DNA from: Blasia pusilla
Lineage: Eukaryota
Reading direction: 5' to 3'
DNA: 64,000 bases
NCBI GenBank assembly: GCA_050084515.1
Contig: CM114271.1
Span: 7,130,001-7,194,000, forward strand
A program made the translations under genes and the position numbers. The notes beneath the pieces were generated by a model. It was not told the origin of the DNA and did not search any database. It saw only the letters and a list, made by a program, of their open reading frames with translations. Shown piece by piece: positions 13,599 to 44,600 of this stretch. Every line of letters starts with the position of its first letter. Positions within the stretch are counted from its first letter, which is position 1.

Positions 13599-14684
13599 AT
13601 GGCAATCCGACAGGTTATAGGAATCCAGCACGTCTTAGAGAAGAAAAGAAGCCTAAGACTGGTTTGACGATACTGGGGGAACAAGCCAAAAGTGAAGAAG
13701 CCCGTCACAATGCCTCAGAATTTGGTCTCCCATGGAAAGAATCCGATCACTCAAGCAGCCAACCTCTCGGAATCCGACAGCTTGCCTGGAAATGGTTGAA
13801 AAGTTGCAGTGGTCAAAAAGTGAAAAGTTGCAACCCGTCGGAATTCGACGGGTTGAAAAATTGTAATTTTGAGTAGCTAGACGAACACAATCCACAAGTC
13901 CAAAAAAATTATTCAGCAAAATTTTACAAACACCATTATCGGCTGAAAAAATCTCGTCCTTTATTACATCCGAAGGAATCTCGGAAATGTACATTTTATC
14001 TAGTCTATGATTTCTTCAGCCTCGTCATCTACAAATTTGCTCCAAACTCTCCTAGGTTCCTACACAAAAGGAATGTCCTGGGATACAAGTGGCTCCTCTG
14101 GCCGATTGTAGACGGGGATCGAAAATGTTGGCAAATTCGAGAGCCTTGGCCCCCCCCTAGGTACACCATAACGGTCCCATGTAACCTGATTTGAGTCCCA
14201 TCGCCTTCCTCGGAAGTATATCTTGTACGCTTTGCAATGTGACACCCATCCAATATCAATATGTGCTCCTTCCTTGGAAATACCATGATGGAAATCCCAC
14301 AGGTAATAGGAATCCAACATGTCTTAGAGAAGAGAAGAAGCCTACGCCTTGTTTGAAGATACTAGGGGAAGGTGCCAAAGTGAAGAAGCCCGCCAGAATG
14401 CCTCTAAAGAGTCCAAAAGAGTCCGATCACTCACGCAGCCAACTTATCCGAATCCGACACGTTTCCTGGAAGTGGTTAAAAAGGTGCAGTGGTCAAAAAG
14501 TGAAAAGTTGCAAGCCGTGGAAATCTAGCGGGTTGCAAAATAGAAGTCCTCGGAGTACATAAACGATCACATTCGACAAGACCAAAAAAGATATTCAGCA
14601 AAATTTTACAAACACCATCATCGTTCGGAAAAAATCTTGTCCTTTATTACATCTGAAAGAAGCTCGGAACTGTACATTTTATCT
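13599..14684 (+). repeat. Two diverged ~400-bp direct repeats (13599-14001 and 14288-14684)
   Basis: Both begin atgg(c/a)aatcc..caggt..taggaatcca and end gtacattttatcta; each contains copies of the palindrome. Confidence 0.85.
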
Positions 14685-17600
14685 ATTCTATGAAATCTTT
14701 TGCCTCATCATCAAATAAATCCCTACTCCAAACGTTGTAGTCAAGCTGGGTCCTTGAGTTCTTTGAACTCACTAGCTCGTCATCATCCGAGAGCTCTTCC
14801 AAGATTATTGTCGGCCTTGCCCTCTCGACTTTCGGAATCGTGGGAAGTGACGATGGTGTCACTATCAATGGTGGGTCTGGAACCGGAGCTCTCGGCTTCG
14901 GAGGAGAGTTGTACGCCCCAACTAGCCTGTCGTTATCTGCCTTTGCCTCCTTGCAAAGGTCAAATAGTTGCTGCCTTCCCTCAAGGCAGAGAATGTTCCT
15001 ACCACTCTTCTAGGCACTTCTCATACTCGCCCCTGAAAGGCCCACTAAGTCGAACACCAAGTCACCCGGCCTTGAGCAGAGCTCGATGAGCGTTTGCATC
15101 AAGGCTGGCGACTTTTCCCTTCCTCCAAGTAAGGGGGTACCATCTTGAATGTAATGTAAATCCCCGGGGGGGGGGAATTGTATAAACTATCTAAGTTGTA
15201 CCCATCGGAGCATAGATCCACAGGATCTTAAACACCTGGAATTTGTGCTCGGGCCGAACAAAGCAATAAACATAGGATTGGTCCATTTGTAAAGAAACAC
15301 GTTGGAAACAATGTCAGCAACAAGAAAGAGATACTTGACCACTCGTCTACTCTCAGTATGGTGACATAATGTGCAACACGTCCCCAAAGAACTTCGCATC
15401 ATAATCCTAACATTGGAGCAACCTGTCGGAGTCCGACCCGGTTTTTTTACAAGTGTTAGTGATTTTTTGTTTCCATGAGCAACCCGTCGAAAGGCGACAT
15501 GTTGCTGGCTTAGAGCAGCCCATGGTTGGCTAAGAGCCACCCGTCGCTTTCAGACAGGTTGCATCATTCCAGAAACACAAGGGAAAAGCATGAGCACTTG
15601 CAACCCGTCATGTTCCGACGAGTTGCATTCACCCAATGGAGACTTGCGGTAAATTTGCAACCCGTCTCTTGGATTGCACCACCGAAGTCTCTAGCTCAAA
15701 CAATCCGACAGGTTGCATGCAGAGATGCAACCTGTCGGAGAAAGAAAATTTGGATACAAATTTATAGCCCTTACCCAAATTTGACTCGTGGCGGATCGGA
15801 GTGGGTACTCGTTCTTGATGATCCACGACTGCGTAGTCCTCCACTTCAGGGACCTCTTGACGCACTGGAGGTTGAAGAGCCAGTCAAAACTAAGAAAAAG
15901 TCCTTGTCACTGAGATAAGCGTCTGCAAAGGAAAATAGGAGCGTGATCTGGTCATAAGAAAGAGGGACATTCCAGTCTGGGACCCCGTCGGACGGATTCT
16001 CGTCCCACAAGCGCAACCCTGAGGGCAAATCAGCGACGAGGAGATCCACCGCCACCTCTCCGACCTCCCCATGGACCGTCCAGGGAGCGTGCCCATTTCA
16101 TTGAAGCTTTCGTCCCAGTGTTGTCAATTTCTCGATGGCGAGTGTCGACGCTTGGGAACTGAAAATTTTCAGCTCATCCAGAAGATTCGTGCAGTGAATG
16201 ATGACGCTTGTCCGGGTCGTTGTTTCTCTATGTCTTCCCAAGGATGATGGAGTGTATTCCACATCTTGTTCTGCTCTCTGGGACAACCCTGGTGCCTCTC
16301 GCTTCCGCTTCTCCCGAGTTTGCGGTCGGCTTGTTGGGATCTCTATGACCTCAGACTCTGGTGGAGTTTTTTTTGCGGAGGACCTGGTCCGACCCTCTCT
16401 CCCAGCTCGCCTGGACGATTCCGGCTCTTGCCTTGAATTTTCAGCCTCTCTTTGGGAAGACTCGGCCTCGGAATTCTTCGATCCCCTCGCCTTGGCTTTG
16501 AGACCCACTGTAGATTTGTCCTTGGCGGTGACGACCTTGGACACCAACTCCGCTATCTCGAGGGCTTGCTCCTCCGCATCTCCTTCGAAAAAGTCTTCTT
16601 GCTGCACAAAATTGGGGATGTCATCCCTACCTGCGGCCACTGCATCATAGAGCAGGCGTAGATCTTTCTCGGTTATGTCCTCAGGGTCGTTGAAGTCTAG
16701 CCAAATCGGGCAATTCTCCACCTCCCAATCGGACATGTTTTGAGCCATCTCCATGTCGTACATGGAAAATGTCTCTCCATCAGGCGGAGAAGCCCACAAT
16801 TTGTAGGGTGCCAGTATTTTTTTCCTGTTACCTGCATTCTTACAATGGACGAGGTACCTGAACACCATGCGTTGGGCAGCTCTTAGTTGAGATGCATCGG
16901 CCGCCTGCTCCTAAAGATCTCGCTTCTTCTTTGCGAAATCCCTTTTTTTTGCTTCTATTTCTTCGTCAAGGTCTGCCTGAGGGAGGATGCGATCCTTGAA
17001 CATCGTCATGGAACCTGGGTTTTTTATGGGCTTGTTCCGCATGTCATCCAGTCAAAGTTCAAAATCTTCAGCGCCCTCCAGGTTTGCTTCCTCTGGAACT
17101 GGCTCTATTCTTTTCAGCTCCGCTTGGAGACCCACGAGCATGGACTTCCCGAGAAGCCGCAACGCATCCCAAAATGACCATTCACGGAGCCAGTGGGAGA
17201 TCACTGGATCATAGATTCTCGAAGGATGGTGTGCCGCCCTCTATTGGACCTCTTTGCCCTCGAGACTGATTTTCATCAGTCGGATTCTCCTAAATTCGCT
17301 AATTTCAGACAAGGCAAATCAATGCACGCCATCGAGAGACACTTTCTCCCCAATCCGACCTTGCGGATCTTCATCCCTCTTCTGCTGGCGTTTGATTATC
17401 GCCTTCAGCTCCTTGTAGAAATCACGGCCAAGTTCGGGGTTGAGAATGGCGATGTAGCGCTGCATCTTGCTTGCCGTGTACTTCATAGCTGCAGATATTG
17501 CAGCTTGGATGAACTTTGCACGCTCAGACATAGACACTTTCTCCCTCCGCTCCAGCTCCAATGCAACGCTCTTCTTGGCGGCTTGTATCTTCGACCAGCA

Positions 17601-19900
17601 AAGGATTGTCACGGCTGCATCTTGGGAAATAAATTTATTTGCCCAAGTCTTTTTTTTTATTTGAGCACCCTTTGCCAGCATCTGATTTACAAGGGCGTCG
17701 CCCAAGAACCCCTTGTACTCTGCCGGGTGGGTCGTTAGCACTTTCTTCACTCGATCGCAATCCTGGATCCAGTGGTGGCTCACATTCCCCTCCGATATAA
17801 TCCTGCACATCCAAACTCAATATAAGAAATTTTGCAAGGTACATGGGTTCCTGCAACCCGTCGGAATCCGACCGGTTGTCACAGCTCATGGTCGGAATGG
17901 TAGCTACGAGCTAAATTTTGCAACCCACCAGAGTCAGACGGATTGCATTCAGATTTGTGATTGCCTGGTTTCAACCCATCGGACTCCGATGGGTTGTCAG
18001 ATAATTTGTATTTAGAGAGTGGTTACCGAGAGGAAAGTGAACATATCAACCCGTCGGAGTCCGACAGGTTGCGCAATTTCAATTAAAGCTGCAATTTGAT
18101 GCCAAAAATGTAGCTCCCCTACCTCCAAATGCAACCTGTCGGACTTCGGCGAGTTGCTTTTGGCCAAAAACATCAAAAAAACATCCAAAAACAGTTGTGA
18201 GTCAAGCAACCCGTCAGACTCCGACGAGTTGCTTTCTTCAGAAAACATCGAAAAACATCGGCCAGTCAAGCAACTCGTCGGACTGCGACGAGTTGCTTTC
18301 GGCCAAAAACATCCTAAACCTGTGGTCGGTTGAACAACTCGTCGGACTCCGACGAGTTGCTTTCGGCCAAAAACATCCTAAACCAGTGATCAGTCGAACA
18401 ACTCGTCAGACTCCGATGAGTTGCTTTCGGCCAAAAACATCCCAAAAATAGTGGCGACTCAAACAACTTGTCGGAGTCCGACGGTTTGCAGCAAGAGGAA
18501 ACTTACGTGTTCATGGCATGCTTGGCCATCTCCACCATCGCCATGTGATGAGGGTATGGATTTAGCACGACTTCCTTCACGCAAAAATGTGCCTCCAATG
18601 AGTTTGGGCGCTCCTTTGCAAACTGGGTCCATGCCATAAACCAGTGGTTTCCATCCCAGATGAAGAAATATAGGTTCCGCATCCGGTTGAATTATGTACC
18701 CTCTATCGCCCTTTTGAATTCCTCATCTCTCATCCTCCAGAATGTGTCGAGCGCTTCCAAGTCCTCCTCTGTAACCTGCGCTTGGGTTCCATGCTCATCG
18801 TAAGGCTGAACATAGAACGGAGGGAAGCTGTCGACGTAGGATGCTATCGGTGCCGATTGTTTTTGCTTTGCAATATCCTCGTCAGACTAAATTTCGCGGA
18901 CGTACTCCATTGTTTGCAATCGGCAAAGTGGAATTCTCGGGGCGTTTTTGCCCTCCATCAGTGCCATCTGCTTTACCACCTGTCACAACGAGGACAAGGT
19001 CAATAAGCTACAATGAATTGCCATTGAATTGCAACATGGGCGTTCACATAACTCAAAGAACACAGATCCTCTCTTACCCGCTCGAAGATTGGGTGGGGTG
19101 TCTTCTTGACCAAGCGCTTTGGGACAGCAGCTGGCAAGTCCATTGGAAACTCGTCGATCCGATAGAAGTCAATTTCTTCTGCCGGGCTTAGAGACGAGGA
19201 TGACCGCTCTCTTGCTTCTTCAGCGATGTCCACCATCTCCACGCTGGCGGTCCTCATGACCTCATCGTCCGTCACTTGAACTTTGGCCGTTTTCGCTATA
19301 TTGATTGTGTCCCCGGACTTCATCAGGGATATTTCTTGCATCTCAACACTTTTGGTTGGACGGGCAAGGCTTTCTTCAATGGCAATGGCTTTTTCCCTCC
19401 GAGATTTTTCCAATTCTGCTCTCCTCACCGACGCATCCAGACACTTCTTTTCACGTTTTCGCCGGCGATCCTTTTCTTCAAGGCCTGCGACGCCTCAGCC
19501 TCTGCTTTCTATTTTTCGAGCACCTCATTTACACATTTTGCAAGAAGCTCTTGCATGTGCATCTCTGCTTCCCTTTCCCACTCCTTGATTTCTTGCTACC
19601 TTATCTCATTGGCCGAACGAGGCCTCGGAGATGGTGACGCAAGAGTCCTCATGGACTTAGGAGTGAAGCTCCTAGCCCTGGTTGCTTGAGATTTTTTCCT
19701 CATCATTGTTCCCGAAATTGCCTCTTATGGACAAGGAAATTGCTCTCTATGCATGATGAATCGGCTCGAGGAATCTCCTTGATGAGTTGCCTTACTGATG
19801 TCGCCTTGATGAGTAGCTCAAATAGTCTCGCGATCGTTCGCTCGAATCGTCTTGCGATGAGTCGCTGTGTAAAGCGCCCCTTGGTATCTGGTCAGCTGTT
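14683..19900 (-). pseudogene. Intron-containing gene: ParB/Srx-like domain + helical region + beta-class N4C/N6A DNA-methyltransferase-like domain (in-frame stops)
   Basis: Exon at about 18505-18980 translates IPLCRL..VRE...YFFIWDGNHW (18641-18655). One frame runs from 17810 to about 15850 through stops and contains VDLLVADLPSGL (16020-16031 = DLPS). The last exon reads GGREKSPALMQTLIELCSRPGDLVFDLVGLSGASMRSA*KSGRNILCLE (15126-14980), with the stop at 14683. The 5' boundary is approximate. Confidence 0.72.
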
Positions 19901-21200
19901 GCGCGAAAGAGCAATTGAGATCGCGAAACAAAAAACCGGAAATGAGCGAACCTTCGCCTATTTATACTTTTCGAGCCGTTGGGCTGACCTTTGGGTCGCA
20001 TCGTCCTTCCGATGGCGACGTGCCGGCCGTTATGGAAGTCTGGACGTGAAAAAAACTAGTTCGACGACTTCGACGGGTTGCACGCTTCCCGAGGGTTCAA
20101 GGCATCCGTCCTCGTGGCATCCCGTCGGAGACCAACAGGTTGCACGCCTCCGCCGTCTTTGGACAAGAACATGAGGTACCCGTGCAACCCATCAGAGACC
20201 GACACGTTGCGCGCCTATGCCATCTTCGGACAAGAACGCTAGGTACCCGCACAACCCGTCGGAGACCGGTGGGTTGCACGCTTCCCTCGTCTTGGGATAA
20301 CAAGGCGGGCTTCCCGCGCAACTCGTCGGAGGCCGACAAGTTGCACGCTTCCTTCATGTAAGCATTACAAGGCGAGGCACTTGCGCAACCCGTCTGAGGT
20401 TGAAGGGTTGCGCGCCTCCGCCGTCTTTGGGCAAGAAGGTGCGTCATCCGCGCAACTTGTCGGAAATAGACGGGTTGCTCGCTTCCTTAATGTAAGTGTT
20501 ACAAGGTGAGGCACTTGCGCAACCCGTCTGAGGCCACGGGTTGCGCGCCTCCGCCGTCTTCGGGCAAGAAGGCGCGGCACCCGCGCAACTCGTCGGAAAC
20601 AGACGGGTTGCACGCTTCCTTCATGTTAGCGTTACAATGTGAGGTAGAAGCGCACAACCCGTCCAAAGCCGACGGGTTGCATGCTTTGCTTATCTTGGGT
20701 TAATAGGCGAGTTACTAGGGCAACCCGTCGGTTATCGACAGGTTGCACGCCTTTCTATCCCTCGGGTAACAATGCGACAACGCATAGTTCCGAGGCAAGC
20801 CATTGCAATCCGACGGGTCACAAGATCTACCTTGAGTTGGACAATCCCGCAAAAGTCCCCAATGATTGGTTGCCTTAGCATATGCAAGTGATATCTTGTG
20901 TTTGATGCTATCTTGTGTTTGATCTTTTTTTTGGAACCCGTTCAAAGCCGACGGGTTCCAAAAAAAAGAAGTGCATGCTTTGCAACCAACGTCTCTAATT
21001 CCCAAATTCTGCAACCCACCTAACTCGGACAGGTTGCAACAGAATTGAATCCATTGTGTCTGACATTTTCACCTACCAAACTTCATCTTGACAGTCAAAT
21101 TCTGTCAGGAGAATCTGAGTCCCTATTCACTATAAATTAAACATTATCATTCTCATTCTCATACCAATTCTCTCTCTCCTCCTGGTGGAATCTTCGGGGA

Positions 21201-22516
21201 ATGGATAATTATGTGAAGCTCACTTGTGGCAATCATCTAGCGGCCCTTCCTCAATTAGAAATCGTTCGACCGCAAGCTCGTGAGTCTTTCATAGCAATGG
21301 ATGAAAATTTTCTCTCAGTTCGATTTCTTCTCCAAATTGGAACCATCTTTGTATCCAAGGATGTTAGGGTGGACGGTACGGAGGACATAATTGGTGAGAC
21401 AGTCCAGCCAGTGATTGCAGACCGTAAAGTATGGAATCTCCTATCTCTAGCAAATGGTCAATATAGAGTTTACGGCTTGCCCCTGAATTCCTTTGTTTCC
21501 CAAGTAGACTGTCGAGAATTTCTTAGTGCACCGAGCTCTACCTTTGCAACTCCTAGCTCAGTAGATCCGGCTTCGACTCCAACTTCACACGCTCATAACA
21601 GTGTTGTACTTCCTGAAGACATTCCAGATGTTGTCAACCTCAGTGGATATGTTGGACACCAACCGGGCCCTCTGTCCGCCTACTCGTTCCTCTTGCAAGT
21701 ATCAGGCAATAGTTTGCTATCGTCTTTGGCCTTGAAAATGTTCAAGCACATTCTTGTCGACAAGCTGCCGCCCACGTACGATGGTAATTGCATTTTTGAG
21801 TTGCCTCCACTTGCTGCTCCTGCTCAAAAGAAAGATGGAGGACGCTTGAAGGGTATGGAAAGAAAGTCTGATTGTCATCGATGGTGTAGGCTTCAACGGA
21901 CTAGTGCTTCAATTCCATATGGTCCTTGGATTGTCTCCTGCCGCCAATGCGTTGGAGCCTTGGAGTGTAGAAGTCCAGCATGCCCGTATCTAGAGCGCAA
22001 CGGGCGAGTCAATACCTCGCAATTCCCCCCCAAGAATGCAGAAAATCCATATGAGGTCGGTGCCACCGTACCCCCGGGAGGCCATCGATGTCCTCATTCT
22101 CAAGCATCCCCCTTCTGCGTTGGAGCGTGTCCTGCATACTTATTTTTCATTGTCCACGACTTGGACTCCATGTCAGATTACACAAGGCTGGAAGTTCATG
22201 TTGGCTGCCATACTCATCTTGTGACCGATGCAATTCAGAGACACATCAAGGAGGATGTGGCAAAGAAAGTTGTCGAGGTCTACAGAAACTCTCCGGGTTC
22301 AAATCTTGGAGTGATTAAGCTAACAACAGCAATATAAATTTATGAACAATTGCTTGGAATCCCTAGACAAGGCAAGATCATGGCTGCTGAGGAGAAACAA
22401 CTCTGGGAAAATCTCGCATTTCTCGTTGATCCTAAATACTGCCGGAATTTGCTGCGTAAAAAATGGGTACTGGATGGAAAGACGGCCGAAATGGATGCCA
22501 TTTCCAGAATCAAGGT
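21201..22516 (+). pseudogene. Probable Mutator-like transposase N-terminus with GCM/WRKY-like zinc-binding domain, truncated by the Ty3 insertion
   Basis: 378-aa ORF with DCHRW...TS...CVGALECRSPAC...N.SQF...C...CVGAC.A...R.EVHVGCHTH, continuing by frameshift into ORF 22350 up to the retroelement boundary. No catalytic DDE domain is visible. Confidence 0.5.
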
Positions 22517-23096
22517 TTTGTGCGAATCCACATCGTCATACAATATACATCGCTGACATACCATACTCACATACATACATAACATAGACGAGAGCATCCA
22601 CAAACACAAGTGTACCACAAGTGAAATCCGTGAAAGACCTACTATCATAAAACACGTATAGAATCACATACAATCGAGCCAAACCCACTCCACGATGGGA
22701 GAATCTAGGTCGAAGCTTGCGGGAAACACCATAGCCAAGAGCTCTACTCACTACCAAGGCTAACTCCCAACGCAATAGGCTCAACTCAAAGAACTGACTG
22801 TTCTTTGAGTGCACTCCACCTTATATCCTCCAACCTAAGAGCGGGCCCTACTGGAAAGCTCACCCTCAATTGAGTAACCCCCAACCCTATGTATGAAATC
22901 GCATCTCTACCTAGACAATGCGGCCCTACATAAGGTATGGCCTCTACTAGCACACTATACTCTACGACATAATCCGTATGGTCATGACAGTTGTCGTGCG
23001 AATCCACATCGTTATACAACATACATCGCTAACATACCATACTCACATACATACATAACATAGACGAGAGCATCCACAAACACAAGTGTGCCACAA
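22517..23096 (-). repeat. 3' terminal structure B-ac-A-B of copy 2
   Basis: Direct comparison: 22996-23096 matches 22520-22620, and 22621-22989 matches 31969-32337. The internal junction on the plus strand is CATGACA-gt-TGTCGTG. Confidence 0.9.
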
Positions 23097-23110
23097 CTCG
23101 CCCCCCTAAC
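23097..23110 (-). promoter_or_regulatory. Polypurine tract
   Basis: Minus-strand GTTAGGGGGGCGAG directly abuts the inner B repeat. Confidence 0.7.
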
Positions 23111-23274
23111 TGGCGGTTAGGTCCCTCTAACTCCCAGGTAGCCCTATACATCTACTACATGCTATACACCTTCTTGGTGCACGAATCAGAAGGCCGGATG
23201 CTAGGTTGCCCCATCGTTAGTCTCACATCTGTAATCCATATCATGCAAATATCAAGTCATCTACCCCTCCTAAG

Positions 23275-23410
23275 TACATCAAGGACAAACCCACCTTCCA
23301 GTAGGAACAACATCCATACATGGAGTCAAACACATCATGTGCCAACCCCTAGAACACCGATTATACACCAACATACGTGCTGCGATACCAGCGGACCCAC
23401 ACAACATTCA
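23275..23410 (-). pseudogene. PHD finger at the integrase C-terminus
   Basis: Read-through after ORF 23408-23992: *MLCGSAGIAARMLVYNRCSRGWHMMCLTPCMDVVPTGRWVCP*C, a C4HC3 pattern with two Cys positions mutated. Confidence 0.82.
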
Positions 23411-24560
23411 CCTCAAGCTAGCACTTATCATGGCTAAACTTGGGTCAACAGAACCATCCACATTTGGAAGATGACATGGCGCACAATTACGCACATGGTC
23501 CTTCCAAACAACTCCATCACGACCCTCCAACATGAGAACTCCATAAGCTAACACCTTGCGTACTCGTAAAATAGTGCGGCCTGCCGTCACATCCAACGTT
23601 GTCGGTGCAATCTGCTGCAAATAGACATAGTCCCCCACATGGAACCTACGAATCGGTGGTCGAAAACCTCCACCCGGAATGGTTGCATACCGCAACGTAT
23701 CCCTGTGTTGAGCAATGGCAAGATTCTCAAAGGATGTTGGAAAAACTCTCCGAAAGAGCTCTGCCCGCTGAGAACACACTCTCATCCACATCTCTGGGTC
23801 ATCAAGGTTCACCACCTCACTAGACTCCCGACGAATTGCTGCTGGAAAGTCTGGATCTCGGCCGTATAACAAAAAATAATGTGAGAAGGAAGCCAAGGAT
23901 GCTTGACGACTGAACCTATACCCCATGGCTAACCATGGAAACTGAATATCCCAGTCTCCAAGATGCCCCTTCTGTAGGCTATACTTGCGCAATGCCCTCT
24001 TCAGCGTCTAAACCACACTCTCAGCCAAACCATCCGCCTCTAGATGATCTCGAGACGTGGTCCGATGATCAATCAACGCCTTGTCACACAAGATCTGAAA
24101 CTCACCCTGAAACTCTGTACCCTGGTGGGTCAGCACTTCAGCTGGTGCACCAAAATGACTAAGCACTCTATCAAGAAACGCGTACGCCGTTCCCTCACTT
24201 GCCTTGTCAGGTAATGCCACTAACTCAATCCACTTGGAGAAGTGCTCCACCATCACCAACACATATCGATGATGTCGTACAATCAACGGTAACGGTCCCG
24301 CAAAGTCCACACTCCAACGTTAATCCAACCCCATAATAGGCAAGGGGTGTAACTGTGGTGTAGGGGCATTGAATGATGCCCTCACCCGGTCACAAACCAT
24401 ACAACATGACACCAACTGCTGCACCTGAGTATGCATGCCACGCCACCAATACTGACCAAGGAGTAAGCTATACGTACGCTTTATCCCAAAATGTCCCAAC
24501 TCCTCATGGGCATGTCGCACAATGCGCTCTCTCTGAGCCAAATGCGGCACTACTCGTACT
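23408..24560 (-). pseudogene. Retroviral-type DDE integrase
   Basis: HEELGH...CMVC zinc motif, DFAGPLP, VMVEHFSKW, EVLTHQGTEF, ADGLAE, WDIQFPWLAMGYR. Confidence 0.92.
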
Positions 24561-24962
24561 CTACCATCCTCCCACACACGGAGAATATGTGTTCCCTCCA
24601 ATCGATACCTCTTAGCACGTTGAAGAACACGGTCTCGCTCCTTGGCACTCACTATGCCTGGCATCCTACTGGTCCGTAGGAACTCCAACACCAACGCATC
24701 ATCATGAATATCATGCTGATCCGTACCACCATCTCCAACCTTAGGATCTGAAGGCTGGCCATCTTCCCTCTGACTAGAGTAAGATACCATGTGGTCCTCC
24801 ATACTAGAGTCCACCCCTAACCAACATAAAAAGGCGGATGCATGCCAACCTGGCACCATCTCCTCATCAACCTCGCCATGCCATCTAGCCCCAGTTGTAT
24901 CCTCTTGGCTAGTACATGGGTTCCTACTCAACCCATCAAAGCATCAAGGTTGGCAACCAGGT

Positions 24963-26260
24963 CTATGTACCACCGGAAGTCATACTCTGTAAGATAAGAG
25001 CCCACCGTGCAAGCTTCCCTGTAAGCTTGTCAGACTCCATCAACCACTTGAGCGGCTGGTGATCAGTAACAAGGGTAAATTGTGTGCCAAACAAGTAACA
25101 CCTAAAGTGTGCCATAGCCCACACTACTGCCAAGCACTCTCCCTCATATGAACTATAACGCGACTCCGTTGCATTATTCGAACGACTTGCGTAGGCCACC
25201 ACAAACTCCATGTGCTCATCATCATGTTGTGTCAACACCGCTCCAAGTCCCAACCTACTCCAATTAGTGTGTAATTGAAATGGGCGCTCTCTGATAGGTC
25301 TCCTCAAGATAGGCGCCGCCACCAACTGGGCCTTAAGCTCCACAAAAGATCTCTCCTAATCATCTCCCCAATGCCACTCTTGATCTGATTTCAGCAATTG
25401 GTTCAAAGGCTTTGCCATAGCACTAAATCCCTTCACATACCTCCGATAGTAGTTCGCCAATCCCATGAATGCCCGAACTCTACTCACATCTACCGGACGC
25501 GGAATAAGTGCAATAGCCTCCACCTTTGCTTGCTGAACTCCCAAACCACCTGGATAGATCACGTGACCCAAGTACTCAACATCCTTATGGAAGAACTTAC
25601 ACTTTCCTGGATGCAAACGTAGACCATGAGCTTTCAACCGCTCAAACACCATCTGCAAATATATCTGATGCTCCTCCACCGTGTTACTGAACACCAAGAT
25701 ATCATCAATGTAACACCGAACAAAATCCAACCCTGGTAGGATCCTGTCCATCACTCTCTGAAACTCGGCAGGTGCATTCTTCAACCCAAAGGGTAAGAAT
25801 TTCCACTAGTACAAACAATCCTTGCCATGAGAGTTGACACGCCATTTGCTATCTTGGCCTTGTCACTCTCCCGAATCGGCAATTGATGGTATCCTGCCCA
25901 AAGATCCAAAGTACTGAAAATCTTTGCCTGTCCGACCACATCAAAGATCTCCTCATGTGTAGGCATGGCATACCTATCGGCCTTGGTTTGCCGATTGATA
26001 GGACAATAATCTCCACACATCCGCCTATCCGTGTAGTTGCCATGCATATCCTTTTTAGGAGGCATGATAGTGGCTGATGCATACTCTCCATGCGACAACT
26101 CCACTAATCCAACCTCCAAAAGGTCCAACGTCCTACTCTGAATCAGGTCCCTCTCCATATCACTATATCGGTAGGGACGACGGAAGATTGGCGTATCAAT
26201 AGCCAAATCAATCCGTATACCGGGTCCAACCAAAGAACCCAACTCCTTCATGGTAAAGGC
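24963..26260 (-). pseudogene. Reverse transcriptase and RNase H (Ty3/Gypsy type)
   Basis: RMCGDYCPIN, FSTLDLWAGYHQ, KNAPAEFQRVM, CYIDDILVFS, YLGHVI, FQLHTNWS, YSSYEGECLAVVW, FTLVTDHQPLKWL. Confidence 0.95.
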
Positions 26261-26629
26261 AAAACAACTCTTATAAGCACGTAGGAACTGTGTCAAGCAT
26301 TGTTTTTCACCTCCCGTAAGCTTGGGCCCAAGTAATGGCTCCCAAGTCTCCTCCACTGGCACACTAGAGGGAGAGGACGATGCCATTGGGTGCTACGCAA
26401 CCCCCTCACAAGATGGTACATCCTTAGCTACGCCATCATCTAAGCAAATAACTCCTCCACCAGCATGAGCAACCAACTCCACCTGCCCAGCCATTACATC
26501 CCATTTACTCCAAGGATGCAAAATACTACTCTCCTTGCCCCCACCGGATGCCTCTACCGTCCCGGTAGCCATCGAGCTCATTACAAGGGGTGGAAGACCC
26601 ACAGACATAGTCCGAAGTCGACGCTGCTC

Positions 26630-27600
26630 GGCCATACCAAGACTCAAAATCCAAGTCAAACAATTCAGGTCCATGGCCTGACCCAACACATGACGTCGTG
26701 AAGCCTCAGAAATGGAAGCAACCATTTGTCACACCAGTAGCAAATCCCATCGCACGCTGTCTCTCATCAGCGTTAGGCTCCACCAACTGTCGCACATGAG
26801 AATCCCATACAAGCGCGGGACCACCTTCCCTGTATGCATGTGACGAGGGAAAACTCATAAATGTGGGTAGTGCCATCCTAGGCTGGCTTACACGGTTCAC
26901 CACTGCCATGGGTGACTGATCAATAACCCTCACCACCTGAGAAATTTGCCCTGTATCCAAGATACTATCCACTGTAAGGCAAGGATCCCGCTGCACTGCA
27001 TCATGTGCTCGACATAGAACCTCCCTAGGCAAAAAGTTTGTCCACCACAAGCGTGGACGATGTGCACGCTGAGCCAATCAAGCGCCAGATCCAACAACAC
27101 CGCTGGTCCAATCCAAGACCGCACCTCATGAACACTCGCCATCATCCGGGTCCGAGTGTCACCCAACAATGGAACATTCTCGAGAATGTAAGCTAGAGCA
27201 CGTGCCTGATGAACCTGAAGATGTCGTAACACCCGTAACATCTCCCAAAACAATCGAGAGCTAGGGTTGTGTAATCCCTCACAACGACCAGCATGTGTAT
27301 GACCCTGACATGGCCATCCAACAATCACCAAATCCACAGGACCAACCCTCTCAAGGTCCTGCGCCTCCAACAATGCAATGTGTGACGGAAAAGCACGTTG
27401 GTACCCACGAATAGCTGATGGCGGTAACAACTCAGGATATCTCCGCATCAACTGACCAATATGTCGAGATGAGACTCTCTGGGCCATCTCATCTCGCTCC
27501 ACATACACGTATCTCTGCACATGAATACCGGCTGCAACACTGCAGCCAAACCAGTGTTAATCCCACCAAAGAGATCTAACACACAAATGCCCTCCAGCGG
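26630..27600 (-). pseudogene. DNMT3-like C5-cytosine methyltransferase domain between PR and RT
   Basis: Motifs in linear order: I VLDLFGGINTG, II YVYVERDE, IV DLVIVGWPCQG, VI YILENVP, VIII AHRPRLWWTN, IX ERQRAMGF, X RRHVLGQAMD. Split by frameshifts. Confidence 0.93.
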
Positions 27601-27812
27601 ATACTGCCATACAAGGGGTGTAGTATCCAAAGGGGATAACCCAACTGGACCAAAAGTAGGAGTCCGCCGTGGGGCCTCCTCTTCCTCGTGAGGTATAACA
27701 GCCTCACACCAAGCCTCCTGCACTAGGCGATCAGCCTCCTGCCGTAGTGCACGGCTTGAACTCCAAAGTGGCACATCCAACGATGAGGATGCCATTGCTA
27801 CAAAAATAGGGA

Positions 27813-28520
27813 CTACGGCAGGAGGCTGATCGCCAACCTCCTAATAGGGACCTCCTCTACCTCCTCATGCACATGAGAATCCATAACAGAAACATTACCC
27901 TCCAAAAAGTATCCTGGCCAAGTGACTACTCCACTAAAACCAGCCACAGATGCTAACACTGTTGGGGAAGACCCTCCTGGTCGAGCCCCATAAATAAATC
28001 TCACAGGAACTTGGCTCATACATCCATCCCCAGACTCCCAACCAGGTCTATAAGACGTTGTCTCAGTCCAGTAATCCATCTGAAAACCCATCGGGTACAA
28101 TACTGCTCCTCCAACTAGTACATCATACGACTCGGCTAATGTGACTACCGCAGATACTCCCAACCGGGAGCTATCAGTCGCATGATCTGGTCTCAACTGT
28201 ACATAAAACTTCTCCCGTGTCATGAATTGAGACCTATCATTGGCTCCTCCAAGTGATGTTTGAATCTGGAATGGGCAAGGCTCAAGCTCTGACCTCCGAA
28301 TACCCAAACCAATATATGCCGCCTTTCCCAACATCAAAGGTTGGGCACCAGAGTCTAACAAGACTCTATCTGGTCTATACACCTGTCCTATAGGACTCAC
28401 CAATCGAAATATCCCACTCCGGTTGTCCAACATACATACACCAGGTGAGCCTCTCACGATCAATGGCTGGCCGGGCTGGTAATGCATCCATCTTCGCCGC
28501 TGATGCCTGCCAAGTAGCAC
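27813..28520 (-). pseudogene. Aspartic protease
   Basis: VLLDSGAQPLMLG ... YDVLVGG. Confidence 0.85.
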
Positions 28521-29035
28521 TGGTACTCAATGCTACACCTGACATAGAGGGTCGCTCCACCGCAACACCCTCATCCACCTCAGCACGTGTAGCAGTAACA
28601 TCCCCACATTCACACAACGTGGGTGCTAGCTGAAATACAGGAGCTAAGTCAACTCCTAAAGCCATCAGCTCTGTGGCCGAAAACAATGGGGATCCCAACA
28701 CTGAAGTTGCCATCCGCAATATTGCATTGGATGTTGCATCTGTGTCTACTACACGCGATGTAGATGCCTCAGTCTCCACTTTCGGCTCAATAGGCTGCGT
28801 AGGAACCATGGATGGAGTCCTAAGCACCTCAGACAACAAGAATGACTGGGGAAGCCTAGCCTACCTCCCAGCCTCACCCCTCCGTGGGTCCAACTCCACA
28901 GTAGCACCACGTGGCTCTGACCCTCGAGTGGCTCCTCTCGTAACTGCAATTGATGCCTCAACCTGTGCTGCACTCGCCATATAAGAGAGATCATCCCCTC
29001 CATAAGAGGTGGGAGCCCCTGCTCCTGAACCTGAT

Positions 29036-30343
29036 CTATCTTTGGATACGACCATAGTAGCCAACCGCTCCAATCTGCTCAATCTGGGACCATAGCGACT
29101 CTGTCGTAGTGGTAGGGGTAGCCACTGTAGGCTCTCCAACCACGGGTCCACCTCTACCACCTCTACCATCTTGGCCTCTCGGAGCTACTCCACCACGGCC
29201 GCGGCCTGATCTCAACTGTGGATGAAGATCAAAGCAACGCTCTCGAGGATGACTTGGTCTCCCGCAATAATCACACTGAGTTGGGGCCGACTGAGGCCCA
29301 TCCTCCAAAGTCCGTCTCCCATCCTCTTGGGGACAAAACTTCCTAACATGATCACCTCCACATGTCCAACATGATCGCCTTCTGCCGCAGGCAGCAAATG
29401 AAGGCAATGGTCTTTGCGCAAGTGTCCCTCTAAGACCTGACTGAGGTCGTGTGTACCCCCCACGACTCCCACTACTACTACCACCACCACTACTATGAGA
29501 CTGTGAGGTGGGCTGCTGAACACGAGAAGTAGTAGTTGTATCCCTATTGAATGCGGATGTCACCACTCTCTCCTTCACCATGTTAAGCTCAATCTTCTCA
29601 GATAGAGCAAACACATGGGTCAATGTGGGTGAATCATCACTCATAAGAGTAGCATCACGTACCCTACGGCGCAACTCTCTATCCAAGATCCCATACCAAA
29701 ACTGGATTTCCTGAGCCTCAGTCACACCCTGGGTAACTGAAATCAAGCGTCGCATACAAGTGTATGCCTCACGAAGACTTTCACCAGTCTTTCGCTCAAA
29801 TTCTTGAAGACTTCTCAACTTCTCTATCCTCACTCCCTGATAGTTCGTCGTTAACCTCTTGAAGAACTCTGCAACCGGGCTAAACGATGGTGGGGCACTA
29901 GTACCTCCACTAGTACCCCCACTGGTACCTCCATGGGTACCTCCACTGGTACCCCCACTCCGGCTCGTACTCGTACCACTCAACGTCGGGTTGGCTGGCA
30001 TAGTAGGAGCACTACTACCAATACCACCATGGGTGATAGACACATAGCCTGAAGACCAATATTGTCTCCATGCCTCAATCTCAGCAACATGGTCCTTCCT
30101 AAACTCATGGTAATCATCCATGGGTGGTCCCTCCAAGTGCTGAAACAACCCCTTCCAAGCCAAGAAGGGTGTAAACAACGTGGCGTTCCGCAACATCTGC
30201 ATATCACACCACGTATCAAACTCCTGCATGAAGTCCTCCAACTCAATGGTGCCCACTGCACCCGAGTATCGTCGTGGGCCCTTCATGGCCCCATATATCC
30301 CGTCCATGTCCCAAATCAATGGAGCTGCAACACTCGATAACAA
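29036..30343 (-). CDS. Gag-like protein with two CCHC zinc knuckles
   Basis: 435-aa ORF; GESLREAY, CWTCGGDHVRKFC, CDYCGRPSHPRERC. Confidence 0.85.
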   Translation of the reverse strand: MLSSVAAPLIWDMDGIYGAMKGPRRYSGAVGTIELEDFMQEFDTWCDMQMLRNATLFTPFLAWKGLFQHLEGPPMDDYHEFRKDHVAEIEAWRQYWSSGYVSITHGGIGSSAPTMPANPTLSGTSTSRSGGTSGGTHGGTSGGTSGGTSAPPSFSPVAEFFKRLTTNYQGVRIEKLRSLQEFERKTGESLREAYTCMRRLISVTQGVTEAQEIQFWYGILDRELRRRVRDATLMSDDSPTLTHVFALSEKIELNMVKERVVTSAFNRDTTTTSRVQQPTSQSHSSGGGSSSGSRGGYTRPQSGLRGTLAQRPLPSFAACGRRRSCWTCGGDHVRKFCPQEDGRRTLEDGPQSAPTQCDYCGRPSHPRERCFDLHPQLRSGRGRGGVAPRGQDGRGGRGGPVVGEPTVATPTTTTESLWSQIEQIGAVGYYGRIQR

Positions 30344-31957
30344 CGTAGAAGACTCGGTGTTTGGAACACCCTCGTCCTCCTCTTCATCAACTGTCGGAAG
30401 TGGAAAAGGTAGCCGATACCCAAATCCACTCCGTGTAAAACCACCACTGTCCGCACCACGGTCCCCAACCAGACCACCCGACAGCTACGTGATGACCAAC
30501 GCCGATGCCGCACCACCACCAAATTACCACCACTAAGTAACCAAGTGACGTCGATGTCGCTATACTATTCTAGCTCTACTAGCTATGGGTGTAGGCAACC
30601 TAACCTGTCATCACCACCTGAAGCCTCCCACAGTCTACTGGTCATCACTCCAGCCTCACTATCGGTAGCACACAGGAGTAACACTACTATGGAAATCAGC
30701 GTCAACCCTAACAATGGGCGCGCAAGCAAGAAGAAACGATGGAGGGGATCCAAACACAGGAAGTCCAACGACAACCCTCCAATTGCAAATGGAAATCAAG
30801 GTAACACAATCCACAAACGTGGCGCCCCCTGAATCCACAAAAACCACCACACAATTCTAACGCAATAGCTACTCCGCCGCTGGTCGATGACGTGCTAGTC
30901 GAACTCGCAGCACCTGAAAATATCACCTGCATGGAGAGGCTACACCGTACTATGCGCTAGAGGCACATCAACCAAAAACCTGAGATGCATAAAGTGCCTA
31001 ACACATCTCCGAAGAACACCAAATGAGCTACAACAGTGTGTACACTAGCATAGTTAAGAACTCAGCAGTTAAGCGTCCTCCATGCAGAATAGCCCAAAGA
31101 TGGGTGACCAGTTATGCAACACTCAAATCACAAATCCTGCAAAAATTGCCTCACGCCCAAGCAAGCAAGCTTGCTCCTTACTCCGCCTCTCACGCCCACT
31201 CGCCCCGAGTTGCCTCGAAGCCTGAAAACGCCGAGAAATGCTCGAGACATGCCCCTATCGCCCCGTTTGCCATGCTTCGCTATGGAGAGAGAGGCCCAAC
31301 CAGGGCACCCCCAACGGGATAAGCGTCTCCAATAATGAACAAGCCCCTCCGATCCGCTCTCCACCATAGCTAGTTTGCAAAATTTCGATCAAAAATTACT
31401 CCACAAATCCTTGACCAAAATTTAATCTGTTTTGACCAGAATTCAATTGACCACCATAGCTATCTCTCCACAAAAAATCAGCTACAACCAAACTCTATAC
31501 TCTGAGCTAAAAAACAGACAAACTTGCTGTCCATACACCTCCAGAATCGCAAATCCAACAGCGCTTCCGCCCAGTTTCATGCACGCAGAAATCCGCAACG
31601 CTCCACACACTCAAGCACATAGCTTCACATGAAATCACAATACAAGTAGCAATAGGAACCTCTCATCCGATCTGGATAACTTCAACAGAGCTTCCGCACT
31701 CCAAGCTCTCCACATCAGAAAACCGTCGAACACGAATCAGAATCTTCAATCCTTGATAACTTCCAACTCCCTTAACGAAATCCGGCGATCTAAAGTACGT
31801 TGCAAAGCTCTCAGCAAGGCGCTTCTTTCCCAATCAACCACGCACCAGATTGAAACCTCCAATATAGGCCACAAGCCACGAACATCCACGGCCGAGTACA
31901 CAATCAGCCCTAACAAGATCCTACTGATCCACAATCGAAGCTACCATCGATCTACTC

Positions 31958-31970
31958 CAGTTCTTTGAGT
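31958..31970 (-). promoter_or_regulatory. Putative self-priming primer-binding site
   Basis: 13 nt immediately inside repeat A, perfectly complementary to 32132-32144, which lies 29 nt downstream of a minus-strand TATAAG (32173). Confidence 0.7.
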
Positions 31971-32337
31971 GAAATTTGTGAAAGACCTATTGTCATAAAA
32001 CATGTATAGAATCACATACAATCGAGCCAAACCCACTCCACGATGGGAGAATCTAGGTCGAAGCTTGCGGGAAACACCATAGCCAAGAGCTCTACTCACT
32101 ACCAAGGCTAACTCCCAACGCAACAGGCTCAACTCAAAGAACTGAATTTTCTTTGAGTGCACTCCACCTTATATCCTCCAACCTAAGAGCAGGCCCTACT
32201 GGAAAGCTCACCCTCAACTGAGTAACCCCCAACCCTATGTATGAAATCGCATCTCTACCTAGACACTGCGGCCCTACTGAAGGTATGGCCTCTACTAGCA
32301 CACTATACTCTACGACATAATCCGTATGGTCATGACA
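31969..32337 (-). repeat. 5' terminal repeat (segment A only) of copy 2
   Basis: Same length (369 bp) as, and high similarity to, 22621-22989; begins TGTCATG on the minus strand. Confidence 0.93.
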
Positions 32338-32342
32338 AAGGT

Positions 32343-33352
32343 CCTTTGCGTATTGAACAACAAGCTTTTGTTGATTGGTTATTGGAAGTAGGAGAGGGTC
32401 GTGTTCCTTTGCACCCTAATGTGGGAGAAGACTTCATACATTTATCATATGGAATTGTTCCTCGGAGTAACAAGATATGCAATCTTATTGATTTGATCTA
32501 TGGCAATTCTCCCATCTGATTCTAAGACAATTGATTTCTTGAGAGATACAACTATTTTGATACTGAGAAATAAGGTTGTTGACGAAATAAATGGAGATGT
32601 TATGTCTTGATTTCCTGGACAGATCATCCTCTTAACATGCATATATATATATATATATATATAGAGCAATGCTTTGTTATTGGGTATTTTGGATGATAAT
32701 ATAACTTCTTCTTACCAATTCACTACGTATTGTGTCCAGGAGCATATTTACGTCAGCGTCGACTCTATTCCAAATGAGAGGATGAGTCATATCTATCCAA
32801 CTGAATTTTTAAACACATGTTTGCCTTCTGAACTACCTCCACATCGTTTGTGTTTGAAGATTGGTGCACCAATCATGCTCTTACGAAACATGAATGGTTC
32901 ACATGGACAAGCAAATGGGACTAGATTGGTGATTCGTGGATTTATGCAACATTGCATAGATGCTGAAATCATCACATGGAAGAATATTGGAGATCAAGTT
33001 TTTATTCCACGTATCCCATTAATTTCATCTGAATGTGGTTTACCATTTGATTTACGTAGGTTTCAATTCCCTATTCGGTCAACTTTCGCCATGACTATTA
33101 AAAGTCTCCGGGTCAAACTTTACATAAGGTTGGCATTTACTTGCCCACTCATATGTTCTTTCACGGTCAATTATACGCAGCATTATCTAAAATAGGGGAA
33201 AAAAATTCCATCCACAATACCATTAGAAATGACAAACATTCCAAAAAAATATCATACGAAATATAATATATAAAAAAACACTTATAGATAAAATAAATTT
33301 TTTAAATTATATCCATGATCAAATCGTTGACCTTAGCACGGCACCTCACTAG
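32343..33352 (+). mobile_element. Helitron 3' fragment (PIF1-like helicase C-terminus + CTAG end)
   Basis: FVDWLLEVGEG, YPTEFLN, LPPHRLCLKIGAPIMLLRN, NGTRL, FIPRIPL, RRFQFPIRSTFAMTI, GQ; gcacgg..CTAG|T at 33349-33353. Confidence 0.88.
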
Positions 33353-42420: not shown

Positions 42421-44600
42421 TTGGTTAGGGATAGATCGTTACTTTTACAGTACGTTTCCCGGGTTGAGGATGGTATTTTCCCACTTCAATCTTCACTCAC
42501 AGCTTGTAGAGACTCCCTTCTTGTTGAGGCTAGAGCAGTTCTTCCCGCTTTCTCTTCCCTAGTTACCTCCGGACAGTCTCGGCTCCAATCTTCTTTGATG
42601 GAAGCCCACTTTGATGCATTGTTTAGAGCAACTATGTCGGACGGGAATATCCCCATGGAGGTTCGGGCCCGTATTCGCTCTTGCTCCGGAAAGGGGGCAA
42701 GCTCATGGATGGGGGCTCGTCCCCTCATCCCGGCTTTCCGCATCGCACCACTTACCTACACTACAGCGATGAGGTTCCGAATGGGCCTGCCCCAACCAAC
42801 GGTGGTTGGTTCGACACATTGCGAGTGTCGCCGGAGTCTAGATCCATTTGGTGTACATTTGGCACGGTGTCCAGTTGGGGGTGATGCAGTGCGGGATATT
42901 ATGTTCTCTATTGCTCGAGAGAGTGGATTCCATGTACAAAGAGAGAGGCACTACTCCATGCGGGATTCCCTTATCCGTGTCGATCTCTACATGACGAGGG
43001 AGTCTGAGGTGGTGGTAGCGGATGTTGTAGTGACGGATCCTACGCGGGAGGCGGTGCGAGCCCAAGTTGTCGTGCGCCTACTCTCCTTGAACGTTAATCT
43101 TGTTTGTTGCGGAAGCGTGCGTTCAGTAGGTCACGCTCTCAACGTTGATCTGCATCCAAACACGCACTTTGGTTAGCCGGGACTTGGATCAATCAGCGGG
43201 ATTACTTTCCGAGTTCTCGTCTCGAACTCTCTCTTCAAGCTCAACCTTCCTAGTTTCACGGTTTCCAACACGGGCAAATCTCGAAAGACTTGGGACAGAC
43301 TTTCTGGTCGGTTCGGGAACCTGAAACGGCGTTTCGCGCCTAGCGGTTCCAACCGTCCGATGAACATCCAATGAGTTCCTCACCAAGACTCGCACGAAGT
43401 GAATGTCGGGTTGGAATCCAAGTGTGGCGTACAAAGTCCACTCCCTTGGATCAGGTTTGGGTTTCGGGTTTCCGCGCCAAACTCCCGTTTCATCTCGTGC
43501 CTCTGAAACGCCGTTTGGCGCCCAAAGTGGGGTTTCGTTTCCCGAGACATCTCAGAGAAGGTACTCCCCTTACTAGTACTTCTGGGGATTTCCGGGAGCC
43601 CCCTACATTTAGGGAAAGACACCCGGGCCCCTCCAATTGGCCCTCAACCCGATTGCTCTCTGAATCGTTTTCGGCCAATATCTCAGCCTGTACTTATGCG
43701 TTTGCTGAGATCTTTAGTGCGTTGGAAGCGTCTCAAGATCAGCTTTCCAACGCGCCCTTATTTGTCCCGAACGCATCTTGGAGCTCAACGTTATGGTCCT
43801 AAACACAGTCAGATTCTCCCAAACGCTAGTCGTGTTCCAAACTGGTTCTCACCTCTTTGGCAACCAACCTCCAATGACTCAACTCATCTCAAGTCTCGGC
43901 TCGCGTTTGGTCTAGGTTACCTGGTCGCGACCACTAACGCATGAAACGCACAACTCTGTTTCGCGTTTCGTCTCTTAGACTTTTCCAAGAGACTCTTCCA
44001 AACGCCTCTCCAAAGCGCAAACCTCACGGCGTGAGTTCCTTTGAGTTCTGATGTTTCGCTTGGCGTGTATTTGGTGTTGTTTGGTTATGAGGGTCGCGAC
44101 ACAAGTGGTAGCACAAGGGAGATTGCTACAAGGAGCGGCGGCAGTGGCGGCGGTCAAGAAGACCCACATTTATAGTCGACTTCATGACGGACATCGATTT
44201 ATCCCCCTAGCCATTGAGATGTACGGGGCCATGGGGGAGAGGTTTGACTCCTTCCTTACAAATTGCGCCCATCATCTCCAGTCGAGAAATGGGTTGTCTT
44301 TAGCCACTACGATACTTTATTGTAGGCAACGGGTCTCCATAGCTTTGCAGCGCACCCAGGAAAATGGCTTATGCGGCGGGATCAGGCGGTTGGAGAGGCC
44401 AATGCTAGAGGCCCACTTAGAGTAGTCATAGTTCTCTAGGTGTTGCTGATATTGTCTATGCTGTTGGTGATTTTGGTTGTTAGGGGGGAAGACCCTCTTC
44501 TTTCTCCTCTAGGCCGGTTCTGGCCCCTTGAGGTCTATTTTTTGGCTCGCTATGCCCCCTCTTTTGTATCGTGATAGGTTTCCCATCCTTTTTCTACATA
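42421..44600 (+). mobile_element. 5'-truncated CRE-like non-LTR retrotransposon interrupted by a solo LTR
   Basis: ORF 42421 (CEC...HLARCPVGG, RVDL, DVVVTDP) resumes after 44101 (KKTHIY, FIPLAIEMYG). Colinear with the copy at 8750-9450. Confidence 0.8.
43068..44101. mobile_element. Solo LTR (1034 bp) with 5-bp TSD CAAGT
   Basis: TGTCG...CGACA ends; CAAGT at 43063-43067 and 44102-44106. The paralogous empty site near 8945-8955 has a single CAAGT. Confidence 0.9.

Follow-up and report, generated by a model that had tools for sequence, protein, structure and literature searches.

The 64,000-nucleotide stretch of Blasia pusilla DNA analysed here (assembly GCA_050084515.1, contig CM114271.1, positions 7,130,001 to 7,194,000 of the forward strand; hereafter the window) contains a Ty3/Gypsy retrotransposon whose terminal repeats are split and circularly permuted. 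Coordinates refer to the + strand of the window, and the element itself is read on the minus strand, from 32337 to 22516. Its repeats are built from two modules, A and B. A self-comparison of the window by repeat finding and BLAST yields the order A1-PBS…PPT-B1-ac-A2-B2, where PBS is the primer-binding site, PPT is the polypurine tract and ac is a 2-nt spacer, and where an interior of ~8.9 kb separates the 5′ A from the 3′ B-A-B (Table 1). An earlier note made from the letters of this stretch had described split repeats with abutted TG…CA ends, and this anatomy was recovered by repeat finding, by BLAST and in the sequence itself. The A…B-A-B layout is the rule of the family to which the element belongs rather than an accident of one copy.

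Anatomy and coding content of the element

The 5′ A directly adjoins the PBS ACTCAAAGAACTG (31970-31958), without a B between them. At the 3′ end, the B1 terminus CACGACA (22998-22992) and the A2 start TGTCATG (22989-22983) lie head to tail, 2 nt apart, and TGTCATG and the reverse complement of CACGACA agree at 6 of 7 positions, forming an inverted repeat. Further on, A2 ends at 22623 and is followed by the dinucleotide ac (22622-22621) and by the B start TTGTGG at 22620, a junction referred to here as the A/B joint. The two A copies differ at 13 of 367 nt (3.5%), and the two B copies, which align without gaps, differ at 6 of 105 nt (5.7%). The element end was set at 22516 because the outer B terminus, CACAAAA, is a mutated CACGACA. 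With this boundary, the four bases CCTT flank the element on both sides. The ends joined to target DNA by the integrase are the A-start TGTCATG and the B-end CACGACA, inserted with a 4-bp stagger, which is the signature of a DDE integrase.

Table 1. Positions of the repeats, junctions, priming sites and coding domains of the element in the window.
Feature	Positions	Strand	Remarks
Target-site duplication, 5′ copy (CCTT, element strand)	32338..32341	minus	Identical 4 bases follow the outer B end
A1, 5′ repeat, starting TGTCATG	31971..32337	minus	Repeat finding, BLAST
PBS of predicted self-priming type, ACTCAAAGAACTG	31958..31970	minus	13-nt perfect complement to a site in A 29 nt past the TATA motif
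Gag CCHC zinc knuckle (CWTCGGDHVRKFCP)	29330..29371	minus	Motif in translation; without Pfam match in this decayed copy
Aspartic protease motif LLDSGA	28329..28361	minus	Translation; Asp_protease_2 (Pfam) at the equivalent place in the intact relative L040
DNMT3-like C5 cytosine methyltransferase, split by frameshift	27146..27579	minus	PF00145; motif I LDLFGG, IV PCQ, VI ENV
Reverse transcriptase, C-terminal half (YIDD), and RNase H	24984..25820	minus	
Integrase, H2C2 zinc domain and DDE core (rve)	24053..24538	minus	
PHD finger, integrase C-terminus	23276..23404	minus	E 0.0013; 2.6e-10 in the intact relative L040
Polypurine tract region, GTTAGGGGGGCGAG	23097..23110	minus	Conserved as CTAGGGGGGCGAG in 7 relatives
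B1, inner B, starting TTGTGG directly after the PPT, ending CACGACA	22992..23096	minus	
Spacer ac (2 nt) between abutted integrase-type ends	22990..22991	minus	
A2, 3′ copy of A	22623..22989	minus	
A/B joint dinucleotide	22621..22622	minus	AC here; AG or AA in most relatives
B2, outer B, 3′ terminus of the element, ending CACAAAA	22516..22620	minus	
Target-site duplication, 3′ copy (CCTT)	22512..22515	minus	

Numerous stops and at least seven frameshifts interrupt the reading frames of the window copy. When stops are translated as X, the element strand matches the Pfam families RVT_1, RT_RNaseH, Integrase_H2C2 and rve, a C5 DNA methylase segment and a PHD finger, and the three frames of the opposite strand match no Pfam family at all. 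Gag, protease (PR), reverse transcriptase (RT), RNase H (RH) and DDE integrase (IN) are present in Ty3/Gypsy order, and the whole plan reads Gag-PR-DNMT3-RT-RH-IN-PHD. The DNMT3-like domain sits between protease and RT, and the PHD finger occupies the place after the integrase that is held by the chromodomain in chromoviruses. As the earlier note had remarked, the DDE integrase, recognized through rve and Integrase_H2C2, is not accompanied by a recombinase: no recombinase family, Phage_integrase included, was matched in six frames of the window copy at E 0.1.

An intact relative was found in metagenome contigs (locus L040, 976-8226). Its first open reading frame (ORF1; 1,369 amino acids) encodes Gag, protease and DNA_methylase, and ORF2 (1,047 amino acids), which lies behind a single stop codon, encodes RT, RNase H, integrase and PHD finger; Phage_integrase has no match in these two long ORFs. 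The best solved-structure matches of the L040 methylase part are DNMT3A/3B/3C, with E of about 2e-7. Named relatives of the DNMT part are hypothetical proteins of Marchantia polymorpha (42-47% identity), and the name Klebsormidium is absent from the 45 listed matches to it. The relatives also include an Atlas cluster labelled Streptophyta, which serves as a lead only.

The element was inserted into a Pif1/Helitron-like helicase pseudogene on the + strand (22340-22515 and 32338-33195; Pif1_2B_dom, E 2.3e-16). The left flank is itself high-copy, with 395 paralogue reads running past 22515 into sequence that is absent from the window and differs from the right flank, so that the empty site is not confirmed at the DNA level. 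When translated in frame, this continuation resembles the right flank at the protein level only, as judged by eye.

The permuted layout as a family rule

Raw whole-genome shotgun (WGS) reads of the same organism (run X24, ~1% of the run, placed on the element at 90% likeness) cover spacer base 22991 to a depth of 913, as against about 800-1,300 over the interior as a whole and about 1,000-1,300 in the part of it that adjoins the junction. The abutted junction is present in the family at large. Most copies have a gc spacer, since 567 of the 913 reads carry the other purine at this base. At the inner B end, 362 reads are clipped precisely, and the agreement among their clipped parts is 0.32; the B end must therefore adjoin unrelated DNA in many copies. 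An interior depth of about 1,000 from 1% of a WGS run also indicates that the family fills a sizeable part of the genome, and the element is a decayed member of a high-copy Ty3/Gypsy lineage. Runs X7 and X15, which are labelled as other organisms, contain interior pieces at low depth and add nothing on the junctions.

The reads also reveal two differences between the window copy and its family. The leader segment at 31148-31485 has a depth of ~150, compared with ~700-900 on either side, and is private to the window copy or to a small subfamily. At 27804-27845, 38 nt are missing from most family members, as seen from two adjacent 38-nt skips in 255 and 169 reads.

Metagenome contigs were scanned with the RT-RNase H protein, which gave 80 loci of 46-86% identity that were mapped for A, B, leader and PPT. 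All 16 rows with a 5′ end, including that of the window and representing 15 distinct loci, pass from flank directly into A and the PBS. None of the 16 has B-NN (NN being any two nucleotides) upstream of A, and A-B-NN-A-PBS occurs in 0 of 16. The earlier note had named a majority of copies with two ordinary long terminal repeats (LTRs) as the finding that would overturn its description; a B precedes A in none of these 5′ ends. An LTR element in the usual sense has two complete LTRs, with the PBS by the 5′ LTR and the PPT by the 3′ LTR, and here the 5′ end has A only, with B-NN-A complete only near the 3′ end. Standard LTR finders will mis-delimit or miss the family, because they expect two equal LTRs.

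At the 3′ end, PPT-B-NN-A-B is found at nine distinct loci (the window, L006, L021=L022, L037, L048, L056, L071, L073 and L079). In 17 evaluable rows, representing 14 distinct loci, PPT-B is followed by unrelated DNA, and L035 likewise has B only. For these counts, L075 was dropped as it reaches the contig end, L028 and L072 were dropped for a truncated B, and loci with shared flanks were merged (L012/L013 and L042/L057/L059). L018/L020 are cut within A2, and L052 is a deleted derivative that retains the A/B joint. Among the nine elements with both ends, the flanking 4 bases are identical in seven (CCTT, TCTC, AAGG, TACA, ATTA, TACA and ATGC) and agree at 3 of 4 positions in the other two. These duplications flank the A-start and the terminal B-end. 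The earlier note had suggested testing whether A…BAB with a target duplication is the rule, and the permuted structure is supported as a family rule. The distant relatives L040 and L045, which have open frames and 70% identity, read PPT-B…ACACGACA-NN-TGTCACG.

In L040, at 8540-9317, the contig reads PPT-B-NN-A-PBS, with a PBS-like site after A that is complementary to a hairpin in A. Possible reasons for this order are that the assembly passed from one identical copy of A to another, that terminally redundant RNAs overlapped, or that the molecule was circular. A scan of viral contigs with the L040 RT-IN protein gave six pattern matches, with no relative among them.

The window holds just one copy of the exact subfamily, with heavily decayed coding sequence. 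On these grounds one might suspect either an assembly error or a one-time rearrangement of a normal LTR element, in which B was lost from the 5′ LTR and part of the 3′ end was duplicated in tandem. This explanation is refuted by the raw-read depth of 913 across the junction, by the recurrence of the layout in eight further distinct loci from other assemblies, and by the lack of an ordinary 5′ LTR in all 16 5′ ends; the perfect 4-bp duplication around the A-start and outer B-end speaks against it as well. Its probability is considered negligible.

Priming sites, junctions and the origin of the repeats

A1 contains TATAAG (32173-32168) and, at 32144-32132, the putative RNA start CAGTTCTTTGAGT, which is complementary to the PBS. 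The 13-nt match was reached by 0 of 500 shuffles. Of the 16 5′ ends, one from the window and 15 from metagenome contigs, 10 have a perfect complement, 10-17 nt long, at the same place in A, and at most 4 of 500 shuffles reach such a length. Three of the remaining 5′ ends belong to decayed copies without a complement, and one has a 10-nt match elsewhere in A that was left uncounted. In L021/L022, the pairing extends over just 8 nt and is kept through two compensatory changes. Covariation is also seen in the window (CTG/CAG) and in L048 (CTAT/ATAG). The PBS is read as a putative self-priming site in the manner of Tf1 rather than a tRNA site, as it complements the putative start of the element's own RNA.

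The inner B is directly preceded by the purine run AGGGGGG (23107-23101) and CGAG, and this purine tract (…AGGGGGGCGAG) is kept before B1 in seven relatives. With the PBS at the A end and the PPT at the B start, reverse transcription should duplicate the unit B-NN-A. The ends of reverse transcription are thus predicted from sequence to be the B-start and the A-end, on the basis of putative RNA ends, and would differ from the ends joined to target DNA.

The two kinds of junction behave differently. The B-NN-A spacer is 2 nt long in all 11 loci (AC in four, AT in two, GC in four and GT in one). The A/B joint consists of the A-end, 2 nt and TTGTGG in 8 of 10 loci, the two bases being AG in five, AA in two and AC in the window, and its length differs in L056 and L006. 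As AG also separates the PPT from TTGTGG, the joint amounts to a fusion of the base immediately preceding the PBS with those immediately following the PPT. In L056, the joint GAA has one additional PPT-side base, and in L006 a partial copy of the A end is followed by 21 extra bases ending in CCGAG, again from the PPT side. The longer joints may be likened to aberrant circle junctions, which can carry such extra bases. Loose pattern searches for A/B joints returned mostly noise, and only rows coinciding with the module map were used. The earlier note had suggested looking for an invariant B-NN-A junction next to a variably scarred A/B joint; the spacer is constant in length, and length variation at the joint is confined to 2 of the 10 loci.

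B1 and B2 have no class-specific columns (0 of 115; 22 versus 8 sequences), and A1 and A2 have five of 388, all weak and each polymorphic in both classes. Given this lack of a B1/B2 class difference, it seems that a single template renews the two copies of each repeat, which would fit LTR-type synthesis and not separate inheritance of B1 and B2. In a nearest-neighbour test, own-partner pairing was found for B in the window and L037 only, and for A in the window, L006 and L048 only; the test is uninformative for most old copies, as decayed copies are all closest to the least mutated ones.

These data bear on a templated origin of the joint, as in the PAT, Ngaro and DIRS elements. Under such a scheme, RNA would run from inside A1 into B2, the cDNA ends would be bridged on the internal B1-NN-A2, and A2/B2 would be inherited from the parent, with the DDE integrase substituting for a tyrosine recombinase at the new B-NN-A junction. 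The A1…B1-A2-B2 layout is identical to that described for PAT/Ngaro (PMC4157794) and for SymbioDIRS-Dnmt3, which also has a DNMT3 domain (PMC5890265), and exchange of modules between DIRS and Gypsy elements has been reported (bioRxiv 10.64898/2026.05.21.726589). A joint of equal length in 8 of 10 loci would be expected as well. However, the PBS lies precisely at the A1 end and the PPT precisely at the B1 start, which would lead to ordinary strong-stop synthesis that never copies B2. Separately inherited B1 and B2 should also drift apart as classes, which they do at none of the 115 columns, and two of the joints hold additional PPT-side bases. Target duplications exist, and the six-frame search found no recombinase. 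A templated joint is thus considered unlikely.

Proposed replication and integration route

The following route is proposed to account for the permuted ends. Transcription would start in A, ~29 nt past the TATA motif, and the first bases of the RNA would pair with the PBS behind A1 by folding back, so that minus-strand synthesis would be self-primed as in Tf1. Plus-strand synthesis would begin from the PPT ahead of B1. The resulting cDNA would have the form B-NN-A-PBS…PPT-B-NN-A, in which the LTR is B-NN-A. Rather than using the ends of this cDNA, the integrase would bypass them and act on the half-sites that lie head to tail, 2 nt apart, within each LTR. To produce a replication-competent A…B-NN-A/B copy, the U5 (unique 5′) end of the cDNA, which is the A-end, would have to be joined to its U3 (unique 3′) end, the B-start, before or during integration. 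The simplest joined form would be a 2-LTR circle that the integrase opens within the PBS-side LTR, where the integrase-type ends abut. If integration instead used the inner pair of half-sites on a linear cDNA, or a 1-LTR circle, it would give dead A…B copies, which could not replicate again because they have no downstream R (the terminally repeated RNA segment). Solo A-B copies would be the outcome of A1/A2 recombination.

The view that integration proceeds through a joined-end cDNA, with abutted integrase sites built into it, is given an even chance of being correct. The further claim that the joined-end cDNA, as a 2-LTR circle or an equivalent, is an obligatory replication intermediate, with RT and integrase using different, circularly permuted ends, is advanced tentatively and with somewhat less than even confidence. 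The 2-LTR circle had been suggested in the earlier note; it is plausible, and the permuted ends, the target duplications and the composition of the joint agree with it, but it does not account for the absence of the reciprocal form A-B-A…B or for the frequency of A…B copies.

Several points weigh against the proposed route. The RNA ends, the joined intermediate and the action of the integrase on abutted ends are deduced rather than observed. The B-NN-A junction is present twice, in identical form, in a 2-LTR circle, and the product of opening the other one, A/B-NN-A-PBS…B, is found in 0 of the 16 5′ ends, compared with nine A…BAB loci. It might be guessed that the missing A-B-A…B form collapses faster into A…B through its 340-bp A-A direct repeat. 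In contigs, PPT-B followed by flank without A2-B2 outnumbers BAB (14 loci and L035; copy 1, a relative of the element, in the window). These B-only copies could be primary products, B1/B2 deletions, or in part the result of assembly collapse. The near uniformity of the A/B joint, with 2 nt in 8 of 10 loci, is equally expected from a templated origin. Finally, loose read ends were scored as the six best-supported classes per run, and reads of the types flank/B-start or A-end/flank, which would mark canonical LTRs, are not excluded by these classes; they are opposed by the contigs only. The counts of the different forms might be reconciled by A-A deletion, by B1-B2 deletion, by 1-LTR circles, or by linear cDNA extended at its right end.

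The last of these options can be developed into an explanation that dispenses with the circle. RT, on reaching the A-end, would switch end to end onto the B-start and add B or more, and the integrase would then excise, in the way of a cut-and-paste transposase, any segment bounded by an A-start and a B-end further along. Extension of this kind would yield precisely the three forms that are seen, A…B, A…BAB and solo A-B, of which the window has one example each, and would not yield the A-B-A…B form that is unseen in the 16 5′ ends; a precise U5/U3 joint also fits. The proposal is made without direct evidence, a long extension would again permit A-B-A…B, and the integrase would have to process ends lying 100-370 nt inside the DNA. 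Retroelement integrases are not known to process ends this far internal to DNA. Extended linear cDNA is therefore regarded as improbable, to about the same degree as a templated joint.

If integration does proceed through joined ends, the element separates the ends made by RT from those used by the integrase, and circular or joined cDNA, which is usually regarded as a by-product, becomes a necessary step that can be tested. A retroelement integrase would then work on built-in abutted ends, as the IS3/IS30 transposases work on circle junctions, and split direct repeats would have an origin in an integrase element that is independent of tyrosine recombinases. The route also offers an integrase-based model for the regeneration of split direct repeats, a step that is unsolved for PAT/Ngaro. 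Experiments are within reach, since relatives with open frames (L040 and L045) and named relatives in Marchantia polymorpha exist.

Relation to known systems and other repeats of the window

The earlier note had described split repeats as typical of tyrosine-recombinase (PAT/Ngaro) retroelements. A claim that they are unknown in integrase elements would be wrong, as the layout has been noted once for a Gypsy element, although barely described and without a mechanism: KnitGypsy-Dnmt3 of the green alga Klebsormidium nitens combines Gypsy domains with repeats arranged "the same as that of a DIRS retrotransposon" (Fig. 4c legend in de Mendoza et al. 2018, Nat Commun, PMC5890265). Going by this published description, the element in the window resembles KnitGypsy-Dnmt3 in being a Gypsy element with a DNMT3-type methyltransferase in its polyprotein and A-coding-B-A-B repeats, and differs from it in host. 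The Fig. 4c legend and section 9 of that paper give no target duplications, termini, priming sites or mechanism for KnitGypsy-Dnmt3. A 2026 preprint mentions "streptophytes (Gypsy-DNMT3)" (bioRxiv 10.64898/2026.05.21.726589). Literature searches on split direct repeats, KnitGypsy, Gypsy-DNMT3 and Gypsy/DIRS terminal repeats returned no account of integrase elements so arranged beyond PMC5890265. As far as these searches show, the target duplications, the termini, the priming sites, the behaviour of the junctions and the abundance in a second host group are new data.

The PAT-like and Ngaro elements of the DIRS order share the split direct repeats A1…B1-A2-B2 (PMC4157794). The present element differs from them in having a DDE integrase and no tyrosine recombinase, along with 4-bp duplications, inverted termini of the TG…CA type, a PPT and a PBS of predicted self-priming type. 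PAT-like, Ngaro and TOC1-type elements have an RT related to that of Gypsy, and some carry methyltransferase domains. TOC1 shares the split-repeat layout, and elements of the DIRS order are not known to generate target-site duplications.

A PBS that complements the putative start of the element's own RNA, rather than a tRNA, would be a likeness to Tf1/sushi elements and to the plant Tcn1 clade; such priming has been predicted for Tcn1 elements of mosses and club-mosses (Neumann et al. 2019, PMC6317226). Compared by features, the Tf1/sushi and Tcn1 elements have ordinary LTRs and a chromodomain, whereas here the repeats are split and the domains include DNMT3 and a PHD finger. The DNMT3 domain and the PHD finger bear on how retrotransposons deal with host chromatin.

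Abutted ends with a short spacer are used by a DDE enzyme at the circle junctions of IS3, IS30 and IS911. Among retroelements, integrase is reported to cleave LTR-LTR junctions in foamy virus and HIV-1 (PMC1180852, PMC1905944, PMC4372172). The ends in retroviral 2-LTR circles are likewise abutted head to tail with a spacer of 2-3 nt and serve as substrate for a DDE enzyme, but they arise only by the joining of cDNA ends, and the route is optional. In the present element, by contrast, every LTR already contains the abutted ends, and joined cDNA ends would form the other junction, A/B.

Two further copies in the window had been pointed out in the earlier note, and both exist as described, though they belong to another subfamily: BLAST of the element's A against the A of either copy gave no match at E 1e-5. 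Copy 1 (5956-1112, minus strand) is an internally deleted relative in which gag and some of the DNMT region survive. Its 5′ A comes with a self-complementary PBS of its own; its B, ending in CGCACGACA, adjoins unrelated DNA without A2-B2, and its flanks agree at 3 of 4 positions. On the + strand, the solo A-B at 62390-63001 belongs to the subfamily of copy 1, to whose A its own A is 76% identical, and is flanked by a CCCT duplication. A third RT-RNase H fragment, ~73% identical to that of the element, lies at 48439-50129 on the minus strand, with terminal repeats undetectable around it.

The window also contains repeats of other kinds. Tandem arrays with periods of ~64 and ~67 bp occupy 18131-18489 and 20075-20756, within a GC-richer region upstream of the insertion. 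Another repeat family is represented by a pair of inverted copies, 87-92% identical, at 8728-9457 and 42576-44326, and a 680-bp direct duplication with 82% identity lies at 13599-14712.

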